A stretch of DNA of 64,000 nt from a virus (Duplodnaviria; Caudoviricetes). Every line of letters begins with the position of its first letter. Position 1 is the first letter of the stretch. The notes under the pieces are model-generated. The model made no database searches, was not told the origin of the DNA, and worked only from the letters and a program-made list of their open reading frames with translations. The stretch is from the IMG/VR virus record IMGVR_UViG_3300021387_000688. One strand, written 5' to 3'. Position numbers and translations under genes: made by a program. Below, piece after piece: positions 1 to 54,651 of the stretch.

Positions 1-1729
1 TTAAGTTACTACACCATTCGAATGCATTGTATTCGAATACTGCCCCTTGAGGTAAAATTACTTTTGTTATGTTTGTACTAGAGAAGGCATCGGCCCCTAT
101 GAAAATAGGGTTTTTTACTCTAGAGAAATCTACCTCTTCTAAGGAGCTATCTCGGAAAGCATTTTCACCTATAACTTTAAGATTTTCTCCGAATATTACT
201 TTTTTTAATTTTTTATTACCATTGAAGCAACTTGCACTAAATTTTTCTGCAGAAGGTTCATCAAACACTTCAATGTCTGCATTTTTCATATCTTTTATGA
301 GTCTACTAACACTCTTAACTTTTACCTGAGTGTTTCTAAAAGCGGCAGATCTTTGACTTAATAAAGTTTCATAATGTTCTGCAGTTTTTAGATTAGGACA
401 TTCTTGTACTATAGCTTTTCCATATTTGGTTTCAGGGTTGTTAGGTAATGTAATACTTTCAAGTTTTGAAGACTCAGAGAATGCTTCATTCCCAATAAAG
501 GTTACGTTATCTTTTATTGTAAGATGCCCTACCTCTGCATATTTAAATGCTTCGTTTCCAATGTATTCCAAGTCTTCCGGAAGTTCAAACACTGGACCCA
601 ATTCTGCAAATTCAAATGCTCTATCTTCTATACGTTTTACACTATCTGGTAATTCTGAGAAGTTTTCGAATTGGGCAGCTGTAAATGCTTGCTGAGATAT
701 TGTATTGCATTGTCTAGGCCAATGTATTTTATGTAACTCGCAAGATTCAAAACACCCTGAAGGTATAGTTTCTAAAACTTTTGGAAATCTTAAAATATCA
801 ATCTTTGTCTGATAAAAAGAAGCATCTTTCAAAGTAGAAGGTATTATTAATTTCTTAATATTGTCCCCTTCAAAAGCTGCTTTTGAAACTTTTTCTAATC
901 CTTCGTTAAGTACAATTTCATTGAAATCTATTTCTTTAAAAGAATTGCCCAATATTCTTTTTAAAGTGCTTGGACAAATCAAGTCCACTGGTGCTTTACG
1001 ATTGATATAATATTTCCACCAGTATTCGCTACTTGAAAAAGTAACTATATCTGTAATACCTTCCGGTATTTCCAATACATATTTGTCCTCAGTAAAACAT
1101 TCTTCTGGAGATGTCGCAGTGCCAATTACTTTAGTACCTCTACATAAGAATATTCCTTTCTTCTCGCAATAATTCCTTTTAATGAAGTTTTCAGGTAAAG
1201 CTAATACTTGTCGAATGTAAACGTCTATATCCGAAGGATATGAAGATGCAATGTTTCTTACAATATTGACTATGTTAGTTTTCTTAGGGGTAGCTTCAAG
1301 TAAACTATTTGCAACCTCCATTACGTCGCATATAGATTCCCCTAAGAATAATGATTTTCCATTATTTACTTTAATCAACTCCAATAATTCTTTTGGAGCT
1401 TTCAAAAGTTTTCCCAAGGATTTTGCATTATATTTATCCTCGCAAACAAATTCACCTAAATCAAATTTTACAAGGTAGCCGTCCGTACATTCTGAACCTT
1501 TAAAAATTTCTACTACGTAATACTTAGCGTCTACGGTATGTCTTAATGAAGTCTTAAAATCTTTTTCCCTGGAATGATAAGATATCTCATACCATTTGCA
1601 GTCTGGGATATCTTGGCCTACAGATTGTATATCCTGCCAGCTTTTTATTTCAAATAATTTATACTTTCCGTTATCATATATTGGTTTTGGATGCGCAAAT
1701 TGTTTTTCAGATTCTCTAAACTTTTTCAT
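1..1729 (-). CDS. BspA-type leucine-rich-repeat protein, paralog of the adjacent gene (runs off the window start)
   Basis: Not in the ORF track because there is no stop inside the window. ATG at 1729 overlaps the TAA of the upstream gene: MKKFRESEKQFAHPKPIYDNGKYKLFEIK..., then LRR_5-type repeats (LPDSVKRIEDRAF, LPEDLEYIGNEAF, IKDNVTFIGNEAF). Confidence 0.8.
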   Translation of the reverse strand, partial: MKKFRESEKQFAHPKPIYDNGKYKLFEIKSWQDIQSVGQDIPDCKWYEISYHSREKDFKTSLRHTVDAKYYVVEIFKGSECTDGYLVKFDLGEFVCEDKYNAKSLGKLLKAPKELLELIKVNNGKSLFLGESICDVMEVANSLLEATPKKTNIVNIVRNIASSYPSDIDVYIRQVLALPENFIKRNYCEKKGIFLCRGTKVIGTATSPEECFTEDKYVLEIPEGITDIVTFSSSEYWWKYYINRKAPVDLICPSTLKRILGNSFKEIDFNEIVLNEGLEKVSKAAFEGDNIKKLIIPSTLKDASFYQTKIDILRFPKVLETIPSGCFESCELHKIHWPRQCNTISQQAFTAAQFENFSELPDSVKRIEDRAFEFAELGPVFELPEDLEYIGNEAFKYAEVGHLTIKDNVTFIGNEAFSESSKLESITLPNNPETKYGKAIVQECPNLKTAEHYETLLSQRSAAFRNTQVKVKSVSRLIKDMKNADIEVFDEPSAEKFSASCFNGNKKLKKVIFGENLKVIGENAFRDSSLEEVDFSRVKNPIFIGADAFSSTNITKVILPQGAVFEYNAFEWCSNL

Positions 1730-3576
1730 TAAAAACTCCTATAAGCTTCTGGGAATACTTTACTCCAAGCCGTCTTTGGTAATATTTCAATATTATCTAT
1801 TTTAGTTAAATTATTATCAAATCTAAAAGCATCCCCTTTAAACTTTTTAATACCATGAGATAAGGTTATGTGATGTAAATATCTACATTCCCTAAAAGCC
1901 ATGGAACCTAATTCTAATAAAGATTCTGGGAACTTGATTTCTACTAATCCGCTTCTTGCGAATGCATTAAATCCTATAGCTAATAAACCCTCTGGCAATT
2001 CTATTTGTTTTAAAGCTGTGCATCCATCAAATGCACTTTCTTCTATAGTTTTTACACTTTCAGGTAATTTAACCCATTCCAGTCTTTCACATCTATAGAA
2101 AGCAGATTTAGGAATAGATTCTAATCCTTTACCTATTGCAATATGTGTTATAGATTTAGAACCTTCAAAAGTAAAATCCGTACAAGTACCTGGAATATAT
2201 ATTTGAGTTACTTTAGAATTGCTAAAAGCATTCCTTCCTATTTTCTTTAATCCCAAAGGTAATTTAATATCTTCCAAAGAATTGCAATAATAGAAACAGT
2301 TTGACCCTAATGTCAATTCTTCTACTTCTTTAGGGAAGATTACTTTGTTTAAGTTTTTACAATAAGAGAATGCCCCTTTTCCAATACGTGCAATGTTACC
2401 AAATACCACTTCTTCAAGATTAGTGAATTCCCTAAAGGTATTTGCATAAATGTATTTGAAGGTAGAAGGGAATGTAATTTTTCTTACATTTGCAAACATA
2501 GAAGGATCGTGTTTAGCAATGTTTAAGTTCAATGCTGTTGCACCTTCAGGTATTACCAATTCTTCATCTGCAGGTATCTTTATTACAATTCCACCGGAGG
2601 TCATTATATAATCATCAATATGGTGCAATTGTTTTTTAAAGAATGCGTTTCTGTGAGGTTCTCTATAAATTGCATCAATACCAGTATCTACTGGACCCAA
2701 TTCATCTATTATGTCTTGTAAAGATACTCCTAAGTAAATATGGTTAGGGTTGTCATCTACTATCTTTTCAAGTAATTCTCTAGGAGCCCCCGTTAACATA
2801 AAACCGTAATGAGCTTTATCGAACTTATCCATAAAGTCTATATGATCAGGGCTATAAACTAATTGCCAAGCTTCAACATATTTTCCATCTACCCAGTATT
2901 GAATTACATACATTCTAGAATGGTGAGAGGTAGTATATGAATCCCAATAACCCTTACCAGCGGCTGTACACCATTTTGTCTTGTAATGGGATGTTCCTTC
3001 ATATATAAAAGGCTCTATTCCTGAAGCTAATACAGAATCACCTTCTTGTGTTTTAGGAGAAAAGAGTTTCCAAGTTCCATCATCGTAAAGAGTATCATAT
3101 AAAAAGTTTTCTGAAATTCCCGATACTTTTCTACCTTTCTTTGCTCTACGGGCTGATAAATATTCTATTATATCGTGTTCAAGCTTGTGCCAATCATCAT
3201 AATTAAAACTATTATCTTCTATAATGTTTTCTAGGATTTCGGTCCACGAATCATCTTTAAACCATTGAGTTCCGAAAGCCTGGGATAAAGCTATTAAAGT
3301 ATCTGGAGATTTATTAATTGCTTCTTCCCATTTTTCAGGACCATTAAAGGTACATTTAACTAAAAAGATGATAGTTTCGTCACCTGCAATATTAGGATCG
3401 TCTCCTAATAGAGTTAAAGTGGCGTCTACTAAGTTTGCAAAATGATCTGGATCTTCTAACATCCAAGCAGGAATATATTTTTTACCACCGATTCTTCCTG
3501 CCAATTTTCCATTACTTAATATCTCTAAAGCGTCTTGGGAACTACGAATAGACCTTTTTTCCAATAAATGTTTCAT
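1729..3576 (-). CDS. Phage protein with an N-terminal TKWCTA-motif domain and C-terminal BspA-type LRRs
   Basis: Repeats such as LPESVKTIEESAFDGCTALKQIELPEGLLAIGFNAF; upstream ACTAAATA late-type motif. Confidence 0.85.
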   Translation of the reverse strand: MKHLLEKRSIRSSQDALEILSNGKLAGRIGGKKYIPAWMLEDPDHFANLVDATLTLLGDDPNIAGDETIIFLVKCTFNGPEKWEEAINKSPDTLIALSQAFGTQWFKDDSWTEILENIIEDNSFNYDDWHKLEHDIIEYLSARRAKKGRKVSGISENFLYDTLYDDGTWKLFSPKTQEGDSVLASGIEPFIYEGTSHYKTKWCTAAGKGYWDSYTTSHHSRMYVIQYWVDGKYVEAWQLVYSPDHIDFMDKFDKAHYGFMLTGAPRELLEKIVDDNPNHIYLGVSLQDIIDELGPVDTGIDAIYREPHRNAFFKKQLHHIDDYIMTSGGIVIKIPADEELVIPEGATALNLNIAKHDPSMFANVRKITFPSTFKYIYANTFREFTNLEEVVFGNIARIGKGAFSYCKNLNKVIFPKEVEELTLGSNCFYYCNSLEDIKLPLGLKKIGRNAFSNSKVTQIYIPGTCTDFTFEGSKSITHIAIGKGLESIPKSAFYRCERLEWVKLPESVKTIEESAFDGCTALKQIELPEGLLAIGFNAFARSGLVEIKFPESLLELGSMAFRECRYLHHITLSHGIKKFKGDAFRFDNNLTKIDNIEILPKTAWSKVFPEAYRSF

Positions 3577-3593
3577 AATAATTATTTAGTATA

Positions 3594-3623
3594 GAAAACT
3601 TCATCTTCGAAAAAAGCTATATT
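3594..3623 (+). promoter_or_regulatory. Class I phage promoter GAAA-N19-CTATATT
   Basis: The same bipartite motif with 19-nt spacing recurs at about ten intergenic sites. Confidence 0.7.
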
Positions 3624-3654
3624 ATAATTGTAATTAATTATTAGTTGTTTATTT

Positions 3655-4038
3655 ATGGAAGGGTGTCTAGATGAGAACCATCGAACGATATCCATAAAGA
3701 AGGTTGATAATCCGCAAGGGCACTAATGGACAATCATTGATTGTACTGCGCGGCGGCCTAACAACTTAACTCATTAAGTTGAAAACGGCGTACAAGGCTG
3801 ATAGATGTCGTGGCCAGGTAACAACACTGATGAGATGCAAAAATTGCCATACTAGGTTTTTTCAGAAACTGAAAGAAAGATTTAATCTTTTGTATGCACA
3901 TTGAAATGTTGCTGAAACAACATGATTTGCGAGTGGACGTTCGCGAGGCGCACCTAACCACAATAAAAAGAAGCCCTATGGTAGCTTAGCGCGAGGTTAA
4001 GTGAGAGTAAGGAAACTTTAATAGGACGAGCCTGCTTT
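3655..4038 (+). ncRNA. Unassigned large structured RNA candidate
   Basis: GC-richer non-coding stretch behind a class I promoter, with hairpins CAATC/GATTG, CAACTTAA/TTAAGTTG, TTTCAG/CTGAAA, ATGTTG/CAACAT, TTGCGAG/TTCGCGA. Confidence 0.55.
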
Positions 4039-4041
4039 GTA

Positions 4042-4071
4042 GAAAACTATAGCTTTGAAAAAAGCTATATT
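4042..4071 (+). promoter_or_regulatory. Class I phage promoter driving the tRNA-like RNA
   Basis: GAAA-actatagctttgaaaaaag-CTATATT. Confidence 0.7.
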
Positions 4072-4101
4072 AAATATACAGTAATTAATAATTACTTAAA
4101 T

Positions 4102-4185
4102 GGGCTAGTCAGTTAACGGCTAGGCTCTACGTTAAAGCCGATAGTGGAAAGCGTAGGAATGTGGGTTCGAATCCCATCTAGTCCA
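4102..4185 (+). tRNA. tRNA-like element with no canonical anticodon loop; G3-U70 and A73
   Basis: Acceptor GGGCTAG/CTAGTCC+A; T arm GTGGG-TTCGAAT-CCCAT; weak D stem AGTT/GGCT; CTACG/CGTAG stem closing an 18-20-nt loop; no encoded CCA. Confidence 0.65.
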
Positions 4186-4455
4186 TCCTCAAAACCGTCG
4201 TCCTAAGTTCGTACTAGGACATTTGAGAAGAGTGAGAAGCTGTTTGACGGTTAACTGAAGGCTTCCGCCAATTCGGTTCAGATGTTTTATGTGGGTTTCC
4301 GCAAGGCATTTGTTAAGAGAGTAAAGGAGTTTAAGCTTTGCGATGTTAGTATTGTAAGGTTTCCTGAACTTTAAGAATTGGTCGCTCCTGGGTTTTTATT
4401 ACCTCTTATTATAGTCATCCAGGAGTGGTTCTCAAAATCATTTTGAGATTTTTTT
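4186..4455 (+). ncRNA. Structured RNA (pseudoknot plus hairpins) ending in a terminator
   Basis: Crossing helices CTCAAA/TTTGAG and ACCGTC/GACGGT; GCTCCTGG/CCAGGAGT hairpin with TTACCTCTT in its loop; TCTCAAAA/TTTTGAGA followed by a T-run. Confidence 0.5.
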
Positions 4456-4671
4456 ATCCGGTCCCGGTATTGGGATGCGAGTCCGGTTTATCCGGTATTT
4501 ATGCGGTCGGCTCACGGAGTGAAAAACTTAAGATTCGTCTTCGGAAACGGATTCGGAATCTGAGGCCCTAATAGTTAAACGTCTTTTCACCGCGAAGATT
4601 GATACTATGGGAGTCTCCGTATTTGTACCTCCTGAAGGGTCCTCTTACGTCGTAAGGGGGCCTTTCTTTTT
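4456..4671 (+). ncRNA. Structured sRNA with a 3' anti-SD module and terminator
   Basis: Multi-stem region closed by ACGGAG/CTCCGT, then ATTTGTACCTCC and a 14-bp terminator stem (three G-U pairs fix the + strand) followed by a T-rich tract. Confidence 0.6.
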
Positions 4672-4693
4672 GGTAAAATTTTTTAACATTTTT

Positions 4694-4723
4694 GAAACTT
4701 TAGAATCCAAAGAAAGCTATATT
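4694..4723 (+). promoter_or_regulatory. Class I phage promoter
   Basis: GAAA-N19-CTATATT upstream of RBS AGGAGGTACGAA-ATG. Confidence 0.7.
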
Positions 4724-4747
4724 ATAAGTGTACGTAGGAGGTACGAA

Positions 4748-4990
4748 ATGGCAAAAGCAAAGGAATATACAATCATTAAATATCACCGTGGCCGCGAATC
4801 TGAAGTAACTGGTACTCTTGAATATCTTAAGAAATATTTCGGCTATACGCTTGAATGTGGTCATAGCTGGAATCGTAGAATCAATCCAGATCCAAAAACA
4901 TTTAAGTCGCTTGTAAATGCATTGAATGCAAGTGTAAGAGAAACACAGGGCTCTTGTTGGGATCCTGATCACTACAGTATTCCAGAGTAA
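4748..4990 (+). CDS. Hypothetical protein (80 aa)
   Basis: Start moved to ATG 4748 (strong SD). The longer ORF in the track runs through the terminator. Confidence 0.75.
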   Translation: MAKAKEYTIIKYHRGRESEVTGTLEYLKKYFGYTLECGHSWNRRINPDPKTFKSLVNALNASVRETQGSCWDPDHYSIPE

Positions 4991-5042
4991 GCGATTTTTC
5001 AAATCACTAATTTTTTAATATAATAGAATAAGAGGAATATAG

Positions 5043-6041
5043 ATGAACACTACAGGTTATTCAAATCAAGAAATCAGCGGAATGGTTCCAATTGAGAAAA
5101 TCATTGAACCTCAGTATAAAGCACAGGCTAAGCAGTATGCAGAATATCTCAACTCAATTACATTGACAGGTAATAAGAGCCGTACAAATCGTACACCAGA
5201 AGATATGCAGAAGGATGCAGAAGCAATTGATATCCTTCATCAGTTGCAGGAATGTAACGATCCAGCTTTGGCATATGGATTTATGCTTTACGATGAAGCC
5301 CATATCGTTAAAATCTATTGGGCAAAACGTTGTGGTAAGTTGCGCCAGAACAAAGCTGAGTTCTTCAATCAGGATGTTTACTTGCAGTGGTTAACTCAGA
5401 TCTTTGCAACTTTGAACGGGGATCATGAAAAGTTCCATGATCCACTTTACTTCTATAAATTGAATTCAACTGCTACAAGATCAGGAAAGAAAGTAGGTGA
5501 CTACGATGTTATGAACAGTTTCCGTACTCACTGGAATATGTACTTCCTTCCAATCTTGGCTCAGTATCTTTTCAAACTTGATCAGTTGGAATTTGAAGGA
5601 GGAGCAGTTTCAATTGAAGCTTCTCTTGAAAACGAAGATGGTGGACATCACTTGGATGCTGAACTTGCTAAGAATGCAAAAACAGTTTGGAGCGTTGAAC
5701 AGCAGGATACTTTTGATGAAGTAGAAGCTTTCCTCAAAACATTCCTTAAAGCTCCTTTGAATCAGCCAATTCCTGTAAAAGCAGGTTCACGTAGCGCCGG
5801 TGTAACATATACAGATGTAATGAAAGCTATCGTACATGCTTCAGTTTCATCTGCAGCAGGTTTGCGTTCTGAATTAGGATTGTCAATGTCTATCCTTAAC
5901 AGAACAACTGAATATATTTACCGTTTGATTGAAAAACGCGGATTGACAATTCAAGATTTTGCTGATTATCTTTCAAGTTACTCAACAGTAGCTATTGATA
6001 TCTTGGATGGTAAACCAAACTCATTCCGCATGGTAGAATAG
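5043..6041 (+). CDS. Possible divergent sigma-factor-like / HTH protein
   Basis: VSIEASLENEDG resembles sigma region 3.2; AGLRSELGLSMSILNR resembles a C-terminal HTH; biased codon usage suggests high expression. Confidence 0.35.
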   Translation: MNTTGYSNQEISGMVPIEKIIEPQYKAQAKQYAEYLNSITLTGNKSRTNRTPEDMQKDAEAIDILHQLQECNDPALAYGFMLYDEAHIVKIYWAKRCGKLRQNKAEFFNQDVYLQWLTQIFATLNGDHEKFHDPLYFYKLNSTATRSGKKVGDYDVMNSFRTHWNMYFLPILAQYLFKLDQLEFEGGAVSIEASLENEDGGHHLDAELAKNAKTVWSVEQQDTFDEVEAFLKTFLKAPLNQPIPVKAGSRSAGVTYTDVMKAIVHASVSSAAGLRSELGLSMSILNRTTEYIYRLIEKRGLTIQDFADYLSSYSTVAIDILDGKPNSFRMVE

Positions 6042-6139: not shown

Positions 6140-6721
6140 ATGTATAGTACAATACGTTTACAACCTTTCGATGAAAAACATATTACGGAAGAAATAGAAT
6201 TCTTATTAAGGGTTGCAGCAAATAACAAAAAAGTAAAAGATTGTTATGATAAGTTGGGTGGATTAGATAGGTGCCTAAACTTCTGTAAAAAGAATTACTT
6301 TGCAATTATTCCTATAAATTATGATTTGTGGGATTCTATGAATTTCATTGAGAAGAGGCAAGTTAGACAACTTAAAAACTTATATAAATACCCACAGTTG
6401 TTTGACAAATTGTTTATAATCATTTTTGTTAATGAAGCAACTTTATCTACTTTGGATAAAAACATTTCCAAGTATTTCGAAAAAGGGTATAGAGAAAATC
6501 ATTTACAGATAGTTTGTACAGAATCTGAAAGATACGGATCTTATGAATACGTAATCCAGGGTATTAGCTCTAAACAAATCGTTTGGAAAAAATATGAAGG
6601 CCCTGAAACTTTAAGTAAAGTAATTACAAACATTTTGAAAACAATCTCTAAAAAAGATAATAGTAAAGATTTGCAATCAATAATTGTGCAGTACAGTGCT
6701 GGCACATCTGCGGTATCCTAA
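6140..6721 (+). CDS. Hypothetical protein
   Basis: CTATATT promoter and GAGG SD; in-frame ATG at 6140. Confidence 0.65.
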   Translation: MYSTIRLQPFDEKHITEEIEFLLRVAANNKKVKDCYDKLGGLDRCLNFCKKNYFAIIPINYDLWDSMNFIEKRQVRQLKNLYKYPQLFDKLFIIIFVNEATLSTLDKNISKYFEKGYRENHLQIVCTESERYGSYEYVIQGISSKQIVWKKYEGPETLSKVITNILKTISKKDNSKDLQSIIVQYSAGTSAVS

Positions 6722-12476: not shown

Positions 12477-13016
12477 TTACTTCTTAGAGAAAACTTCTCC
12501 AGTTAGGCTAGAAGTAAAATTGTGTTTTGTCCACTTGTAAACAACTGAACCATCTGCCAAGTAGGTATAATGGATTGGCAAACCTTTCTGCTTACGAATC
12601 TTTGTTACGTCGGATCCGTTCGGCAAATCGTTACCTTTAATGCTGTTACAAATAGTACACAAACACTGTGCATTTGTAAGACTGTTAGAACCTCCAAGAG
12701 ATTTTGGCTCTACATGGTCCCAAGTTAGTAATACTTCCTGTCCACCTGCATCAATTCCGTAAAAGTTTAAGTGTGTTTGTTCTGGAGTAGCAATATGTGC
12801 TTCTACGCAAGCATACTTTGCTGCAATACCACAGAACTCGCATACCAAGTTCTTATGTACCCAAAGAAGTTTCATTCGTGTACTTTTACAGTTTACACTC
12901 ATTCCGTTTGGGAACAAAATCTTACTTTCAAGAACTGGTGGAATCTCAGGAAGGGATACTTTGATATACCGGATGTACTTGTCTTTAGTAATCAACGGCG
13001 TTTCAAAAATCTCCAT
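12477..13016 (-). CDS. HNH endonuclease
   Basis: CEFC...TWDHVEPKSLGGSNSLTNAQCLCTICNSIKGN. Confidence 0.85.
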   Translation of the reverse strand: MEIFETPLITKDKYIRYIKVSLPEIPPVLESKILFPNGMSVNCKSTRMKLLWVHKNLVCEFCGIAAKYACVEAHIATPEQTHLNFYGIDAGGQEVLLTWDHVEPKSLGGSNSLTNAQCLCTICNSIKGNDLPNGSDVTKIRKQKGLPIHYTYLADGSVVYKWTKHNFTSSLTGEVFSKK

Positions 13017-16493: not shown

Positions 16494-16584
16494 ATTGTAC
16501 CTCTTGATTATAATATAGGTTTTTCGGGTTTAAGTTTTTTCCAAAAAGAAACCCGATTCCTAAGAATCGGGTGCCATTTATTTT

Positions 16585-16962
16585 TTAGCGTTCCTGCTTT
16601 TCGATCTTTTCGATATGGTCTGCAACTTCTGGATGAAGCCGTTTCCATTCTTCAATTGTTTCTGGCTTTGCAATACCAAGAATTTCTTCACGGCAAGTAA
16701 TATAGCCATTGTCAAAATCAGATGCAAACACGCCGAAAATCTTTCTTCCCATTTTGTTTGGATCACAACCAAAACCACTTGATGCAAAATAAAGCTGATT
16801 CAATTTGTTAGCGTATTCAGCTTTCATCCAATGGTTTTCAACGGAAGTCTTCATATCCAAAACAACCCACTTACCTGTAAAGTTGTCATAATGAGATCCT
16901 GGAAGGATGTCATCTTCTGTAAAAAGATCAAACTCTTTTTCTATTGTAATCATTGTTCCCAT
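16585..16962 (-). CDS. Hypothetical protein
   Basis: AGGAGGTACAAAT-ATG; contains an ASSGFGCDP motif. Confidence 0.7.
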   Translation of the reverse strand: MGTMITIEKEFDLFTEDDILPGSHYDNFTGKWVVLDMKTSVENHWMKAEYANKLNQLYFASSGFGCDPNKMGRKIFGVFASDFDNGYITCREEILGIAKPETIEEWKRLHPEVADHIEKIEKQER

Positions 16963-16980
16963 ATTTGTACCTCCTATGGA

Positions 16981-54508: not shown

Positions 54509-54520
54509 AATTTCTCCAAT

Positions 54521-54618
54521 AAAAAAGGTCCTAGAATTTCTCCTAGGACCCTAAGGGAGGTACAAAACCTACATCTCCGAAGGAGTTCGTTGTAGATAAG
54601 ATCTACCGTTTTAGAATA
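54521..54618 (-). ncRNA. sRNA candidate with the anti-SD module and terminator
   Basis: CTATAAT upstream; hairpins; TTTGTACCTCC-ctt-AGGGTCCT, same module as at 4622-4643; terminator GGTCCTAG/CTAGGACC followed by a T-run. Confidence 0.6.
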
Positions 54619-54651
54619 TTCTTATTATAGAATATGCTCCCTTGTCCTTTT

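Follow-up and report, generated by a model that had tools for sequence, protein, structure and literature searches.

In the Firmicutes C-rich or UCCC-motif sRNAs, such as RNAIII and RsaE/RoxS, several exposed C/U-rich motifs, situated in loops and single-stranded stretches, pair with the Shine-Dalgarno (SD) sequences of multiple mRNAs. Phage T4 makes two stable RNAs, species 1 and 2, that are co-transcribed with the phage tRNAs and for which we know of no function. In phages P1 and P7, RNase P releases the c4 RNA from a precursor. This RNA is a phage sRNA that pairs around the ribosome-binding site (RBS) of the phage's own mRNA, blocking its translation (PMC12197685). The trans-acting phage sRNAs that have been reviewed are mostly those of temperate coliphages, each with one target or a few host genes (PMC12197685). 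In T4, RegB inactivates many early mRNAs at the SD through the sequence GGAGRAYARAA, and most middle messages and all late messages are spared (PMC3014915).

A literature search found no sRNA family of a virulent-type giant phage in which a shared seed mirrors the leader of the phage's own early-gene class. The locus described here is a candidate for such a family. It is part of a 64,000 nucleotide stretch of phage DNA (Caudoviricetes; IMG/VR record IMGVR_UViG_3300021387_000688), referred to here as the window, in which the initial annotation had placed a trans-acting sRNA with an anti-SD tail at 4456–4671. By analogy, its working mode would be most like that of the P1/P7 c4 antisense RNA.

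The non-coding island and its transcripts

The locus is within a non-coding island of 1.17 kb (3577–4747), between a minus-strand LRR gene (1729–3576) and a plus-strand gene (4748–4990). No credible ORF was found in the island under translation table 11, under table 4, or with TAG read as Q. An ORF at 4607–4990, in frame into the gene starting at 4748, was rejected as coding on account of its ATG being missing in the relative L001. The neighbouring 332 aa protein has many homologues, with the island kept only in the close ones. These are L012 and L014, which are about 99% identical, and L001 and L002, in which the neighbour protein is 90% identical. In relatives where this protein is 40–57% identical, the island was not found at this site. 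Searches of INPHARED by blastn, of IMG/VR with three neighbouring proteins, and of IMG/VR by a 20-mer scan returned no relatives, and a metagenome scan returned only L014, a 99% identical strain. One IMG/VR relative (140 kb) had RBS-type matches only, and a gapped-pattern match, L013, was rejected as a chance match in GC-rich sequence.

The promoter motif AAAGCTATATTA is present in 7 copies in the window, against 1.4 expected. Three plus-strand copies are within the island, at 3613, 4061, and 4713. The copy at 4713 (+) and those at 16511, 46340, and 47217 (-) are each immediately 5' of an (A/G)GAGGTAC(A/G)A-ATG leader. The copy at 4061–4072 is part of an early-type promoter (TAGAAA ... AAAGCTATATTA; 4040–4080, plus strand), which most likely drives a single transcript made up of a tRNA-like element and two further domains, RNA-2A and RNA-2B. 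The tRNA-like element (4102–4185, plus strand) would form the 5' end of this transcript. It matches the Rfam tRNA family at 33.6 bits, with G3:U70, A73, and a 20 nt anticodon loop, and is a possible signal for processing by RNase P/Z.

The tRNA-like element has been swapped between near-identical strains (4102–4185 in the window, 3064–3148 in L012). The L012 version has compensated changes in all three stems (acceptor, anticodon, and T), and G3:U70, A73, and the 20 nt loop UUAAAGCC.A.AGUGGAAAG are retained. A third version is found in L001 (269–383), with a 53 nt insert and A3:U70. Assemblies often break at this element. Between 3500 and 4800, cmscan at E≤10 returned only the tRNA match and four chance-level matches, and no other Rfam family. 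There was no covariance match to the P1/P7 c4 family (Rfam C4) and no match in the window to ROOL/GOLLD, both at E≤10. Weak matches to Moco and ROOL on terminator hairpins were below threshold and were rejected, as was membership of ROOL in L001, where a partial match of 17.6 bits (E 0.5; gathering score 99.1) is on the wrong strand. No tmRNA was found by standard ARAGORN; a call that appears only at 60–80% thresholds combines parts from either side of a promoter and has an atypical tag. This call and an intron-bearing tRNA from relaxed ARAGORN were both rejected as artefacts of the lowered thresholds.

Behind the 3613 promoter is RNA-1 (3643–4030), which has a contig depth of 14–99 in four metatranscriptomes and exceeds the other species of the island in abundance there. 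It matches no Rfam family and its minimum free energy is no better than that of shuffles (z = -0.55). In L012 there is a 217 nt insertion after window position 3832, ending in the T-arm-like sequence GGGAGGTTCGAATCCTCCC. An IS605-type OrfB/TnpB (Cas12f-like) gene is located a few kb downstream in the 90% relative (4905–6272 in L001, 4618–6003 in L002) and is missing from the corresponding place in the window.

RNA-2A (4186–4430, plus strand) is a highly conserved structured RNA, with long stretches identical between the window and L001. Its hairpin at 4383–4427 presents a second anti-SD motif, UUACCUCUU (4399–4407), in the apical loop. Changes in the stem of this hairpin between the window and L001 are compensatory, and its loop is conserved. 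The loop motif can form 8 pairs with the AAGAGGUA leaders of the genes starting at 6140, 17406, and 29814. An AU-rich hairpin followed by U7 (4430–4456, plus strand) is present in the window's lineage only, being absent in L001 and L002, and may separate RNA-2A from RNA-2B as a weak terminator or a site of processing. RNA-2B (4456–4672, plus strand) corresponds to the sRNA of the initial annotation. It consists of the hairpins H3 (4527–4565) and H4 (4581–4599), a small hairpin, the anti-SD seed, and an intrinsic terminator with its U-tract (4634–4672), in which a hairpin of 15 pairs (4634–4666) includes several G-U pairs. The folding of the whole unit of 590 nt is better than that of shuffles (z = -4.5).

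RNA spanning the reported stretch exists in rumen metatranscriptomes. RNA contigs in four metatranscriptomes from four studies cover 3643–4030, 4186/4203–4425/4430, and 4467–4664; such contigs show neither strand nor true RNA ends. RNA-2A is covered in two studies (4207–4425 and 4203–4430) and RNA-2B by contigs at 4481–4664 (X15) and 4467–4627 (X18). The contigs of X15 and X18 break at 4430–4456 and that of X17 continues through. Stretches without RNA contigs are the tRNA-like element, in X15 and X18, and 4430–4467. Break points common to studies are weak hints of separate or processed RNA species. The flanking coding DNA (3400–3640 and 4681–5200) has no cover at all in X15 and X18, a pattern that favours abundant, stable RNAs over DNA carry-over.

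Folding is energetically more favourable on the plus strand than in the complement for each of the hairpins (terminator -22.5 versus -10.5 kcal/mol, H3 -10.6 versus -3.6, loop hairpin -17.9 versus -11.2). Natural variants preserve the hairpin pairing through G-U pairs or double changes. Because all of the hairpins are clearly more stable on the plus strand and the variants preserve their pairing, the RNA is assigned to this strand, which the predicted structure fits. Variants were folded one by one, since diverged hairpins align out of register. The terminator has a compensated variant in L012 and is replaced by a different hairpin at the same place in L001. The expressed non-coding transcript is thus discrete and ends in an intrinsic terminator, its 5' end and strand being not directly visible in the contigs. 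Of the sRNA proposed at 4456–4671, the presence of the RNA and its terminator stand; a separate start at 4456 is not supported, since in L001 there is no terminator before RNA-2B. RNA-2B is probably the 3' domain of a transcript of about 590 nt led by the tRNA-like element, because in L001, without the AU-rich hairpin and U7, RNA-2A and RNA-2B are continuous.

The anti-SD seed, its predicted partners, and a second module

Directly 5' of the terminator, 4616–4633 reads TCCGTATTTGTACCTCCT (UCCGUAUUUGUACCUCCU). The leader of the gene at 16585–16962 (minus strand; 125 aa) is AGGAGGTACAAATATGGGA, with a paired segment AGGAGGUACAAAUAUGGGA. As had been proposed, the two can form 18 consecutive pairs, 2 of them G-U, over the SD, spacer, and AUG (16961–16979), with an RNAduplex energy of -31.3 kcal/mol. 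No other of the 65 gene starts (median -12.1) scores as well, nor does any other of approximately 12,800 segments of 40 nt on both strands, the RNA's own antisense excepted (mean -7.3, standard deviation 3.5), making this gene the best predicted target. The next best of these segments is the initiation region of the gene at 12477–13016 (minus strand; -28.3 kcal/mol), where the predicted duplex has two helices around an internal loop, one over AGGAGGU and the other over UAUGGAGAU. The shorter duplexes that had been predicted with the leaders of the genes starting at 4748, 46320 (GAGGUACAAAUUAU), 47197, and 16493 were also found. The leader of the adjacent 80 aa gene (4748–4990), which is the second candidate target, forms 13 contiguous pairs at 4734–4750 on the plus strand (-22.8 kcal/mol). 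In L001 this pairing is kept as 12 pairs, one mismatch, and then 3 pairs over the AUG.

The anti-SD motif is not a chance occurrence. GTACCTCY is present 8 times in the window, against 1.73 expected, and none of 100 shuffles reaches 8. Terminator-like hairpins number about 40 in the window, and only 2 of them have CCUC(C/U) within 25 nt upstream, both carrying UUUGUACCUCC. The complementarity to target SD and AUG regions is likewise beyond chance. The opposite strand has ACG after the motif, as initially noted, and no ATG, GTG, or TTG within 12 nt. An antisense ORF is excluded by the lack of an opposite-strand start codon within 12 nt at either module; an antisense ATG in L001 was rejected, its frame being only 4 codons long.

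The conserved seed is UUGUACCUCCUG (4623–4634, plus strand), which has an extended, lineage-specific form at 4616–4634. RNA-2B of the window and of L001 are 64% identical, the longest identical runs, of 12 nt, being the terminator U-tract and the seed TTGTACCTCCTG. On its 5' side the seed is preceded by CCGUAU in the window and by UUCAUC in L001, and the pairing of H3 and H4 is kept in L001 by compensatory substitutions. The core has a UCCU end that is predominantly unpaired (0.67–1.00) in each of the four predicted ensembles. The GUACC part is unpaired in L001 (0.81–0.98), about half unpaired in the long transcript of the window, and paired with an upstream GGUAU in the short form from the window (0.05–0.10 unpaired). 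These findings support the anti-SD core as the element of the RNA that is conserved and for the most part unpaired, an accessible seed amid structure that evolves by compensatory change.

Each module is represented by only two diverged lineages, too few for seed-target covariation. An orthologue of the 16962 gene from the sample of L001 has the leader AGGAGGTATAAATATGG, and the tail of that lineage is CUUCAUCUUGUACCUCCUG; these pair over only 12 nt and the AUG is not spanned. Judged from the sequences, the 18 bp duplex may therefore be specific to the window's lineage, with only 10–12 nt conserved, or else the two contigs may not be from one phage.

A second module, M2, is on the minus strand at 54519–54632, in the 3' UTR of a 92 aa gene. 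It has a TATAAT -10 box (54628–54623), a hairpin, a small hairpin, a 26 nt seed (54577–54552) containing the core UUGUACCUCC (54565–54556), and a terminator (54552–54525) with a U-tract. M2 contains AUGUAGGUUUUGUACCUCCCUUA, and its terminator again starts with GGGUCCU. In L028 and L029, where the adjacent protein is 74% identical and the longest identical coding run is 14, the M2 seed is identical at 26 of 26 positions. The first hairpin is fully rewritten there (GUAGAU/AUCUAC to ACAAAC/GUUUGU) and the changes in the terminator stem are compensatory. Alignment of M2 with the module in RNA-2B (M1) in all lineages, six sequences from two loci, leaves one invariant block of 10 nt, UUGUACCUCC. No convincing partner for the 26 nt M2 seed was found within the 64 kb window, and in IMG/VR and the species genomes it had only chance matches inside coding sequences. 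In the retrieved loci of the relatives, no targets of the L001 tail or of the M2 seed were found, nor any anti-SD and terminator modules besides M1 and M2.

Contiguous pairing of the 10 nt core has a bimodal distribution among the 65 gene starts, being of 8–10 nt in 10 and of 6 nt or less in 55. The general shut-off of SD-led mRNAs that had been suggested is not supported, given this 55 of 65; ordinary AAGGAG starts pair with the core over only 4–6 nt. Nine of the ten strong pairers have (A/G)GAGGU-type leaders, mostly of early genes, with eight of the form (A/G)GAGGUA(C/U)(A/G)A and the ninth that of 13016 (AAGGAGGUUUU). Five GAGGUAC starts belong to operons with a promoter of the TATATTAT type, which immediately precedes four of these starts. 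The promoter and GAGGTAC cassette is also present in the distant relatives L003, L016, L020, L024, and L026. The tail of 16S rRNA is ACCUCCUUU. The UAC(A)A of the leader adds no pairing with this tail, so its conservation fits a second reader of the sequence.

About a dozen genes have no SD and instead carry ACTAAATA or CTAATTAA 3–10 nt before the ATG. Genes of this kind start at 3576(-), 10096, 30202, 41517, 41782, 47455, 56136, 59142(-), 59203, and 18374(-). They are probably a late promoter class with leaderless or near-leaderless mRNAs. This is compatible with the leaderless late class of the initial annotation, an agreement that is not proof.

Proposed mechanism and rival explanations

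We give about an even chance to a phage sRNA family that would prevent initiation on early GAGGUAC-leader mRNAs, with a seed close to the terminator base pairing in trans across the stretch from SD to AUG. An RNA of about 590 nt would start at the 4061 promoter, with the tRNA-like element first, and end at the terminator at 4634–4666. The seed UUGUACCUCCUG, predicted to be exposed just 5' of the terminator, would recognise its complement (C)AGGAGGUACAA, the leader behind the sigma70-like early promoters of this phage family. Members of the family would have the same 10 nt core beside a terminator and different bases 5' of it. The seed would pair in trans with the SD-to-AUG regions of a subset of early mRNAs, in the window those of 16962 and 4748 first and then 13016, 46320, 47197, and 16493. 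Such pairing would block 30S binding and might trigger decay. The promoter class of the sRNA is that of its targets, and the outcome would therefore be delayed negative feedback, a self-limiting pulse of early protein synthesis. With this shared promoter class, timing would need slow accumulation or processing of the RNA. We infer pairing in vivo, repression, its timing, and the escape of SD-less late mRNAs. A wider version is rather unlikely, namely an RNA programme switch in which sRNAs with gene-tuned 5' seed extensions silence the whole GAGGUAC-leader class while leaderless late mRNAs of the ACTAAATA/CTAATTAA type escape.

A rival reading is a function in cis. In read-through transcripts the anti-SD (4623–4634) could pair with the SD of the gene at 4748 (4737–4746), about 100 nt downstream, such that the gene is translated only from its own 4713 promoter and not from the abundant upstream RNA operon. 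The 13 contiguous pairs with this leader are consistent with such an insulator, as is the conservation of both sides in L001, where one G-U pair has changed to A-U and there is extra pairing at the AUG. The P1 c4 RNA and its target are likewise in one operon (PMC12197685). However, the M2 core could pair with the SD of the gene that follows it over no more than about 5 nt, the leader downstream of M2 is replaced in L028 with the seed still identical at 26 of 26 positions, and the best M1 duplex is with a gene 12 kb away. An insulator is for these reasons considered unlikely. A more outward-looking function, in which the CCUCC core, like the 3' end of 16S rRNA, titrates strong host SDs and aids host shut-off with the phage matches being incidental, is decidedly unlikely. 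In its favour, the universal anti-SD pentamer is part of the core, metatranscriptomes contain the RNAs in abundance, and the long conserved seed of M2 is without a phage partner in the window. Against this, AAGGAG starts pair over only 4–6 nt, and conservation runs past CCUCC into UUGUA, which matches the UACAA spacer of the phage family and not the 16S tail (ACCUCCUUU).

It is quite unlikely that the tail has some other job, such as protein binding, stabilisation of the 3' end, termination efficiency, or an intramolecular switch. For the last of these there is a possible configuration, since CUCCUG (4629–4634) complements CAGGAG (4420–4425) of the same RNA, and the tail might compete with the CUCCUGG arm of the 4383–4427 hairpin for CCAGGAG. 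This intramolecular partner is altered in L001 (CCGGGGG) and yet the tail is unaltered. Conserved regulatory blocks follow one another all the way between the seed and the next gene, but M2 carries the same core in an unrelated RNA body and the other terminators of the window are without the motif. The leader cassette could also have given rise to the motifs by being copied in inverse orientation. Read as its reverse complement, the tail resembles a leader with a decayed ATG (AGGAGGTACAAATACGG), and the complement of the UUACCUCUU loop motif resembles a -10 box and leader without an ATG (TATAATAAGAGGTAAT). That they are inert relics, promoter-leader cassettes inverted by recombination between repeated early cassettes, is highly improbable. 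Relics would be expected to decay at the rate of the flanks, whereas identical runs of 12/12 and 26/26 are seen in diverged RNA, and the core is always at the same place relative to a terminator, within a transcribed and abundant RNA.

Comparison with known regulators

Trans-acting pairing with the early GAGGUAC leaders, the preferred reading, would share features with each of the systems described at the outset. As with T4 species 1 and 2 and tRNA-linked viral small RNAs, a non-coding RNA is located behind a tRNA-shaped element in one transcription unit. Like RNAIII and RsaE, the RNA has several C/U-rich motifs predicted to be exposed, one in a hairpin loop (4399–4407) and one before the terminator. 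Unlike here, those RNAs are bacterial; there is no homology to them, and the seed of the phage RNA extends into a phage-specific spacer. As in the c4 system, a regulator is upstream of a target in the same region, and here a tRNA-like element heads the precursor. In contrast, c4 controls one antirepressor operon for immunity, while here the seed matches the leader of about nine genes per 64 kb and there are at least two paralogous sRNAs.

If the proposed mechanism is true, the seed and leader would be a compact, portable pair with which timed translation control could be engineered. The programme switch, if true, would do with RNA what RegB does in T4, and would link this to a changed mode of translation initiation. 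The proposed logic is the same as that of RegB, an early phage product that acts against many early mRNAs by way of an extended SD. Recognition would here be by an RNA seed, with no implication of cleavage, whereas RegB is a protein nuclease assisted by ribosomal protein S1. The early shut-off for which T4 uses the RegB nuclease would then be achievable by RNA alone.
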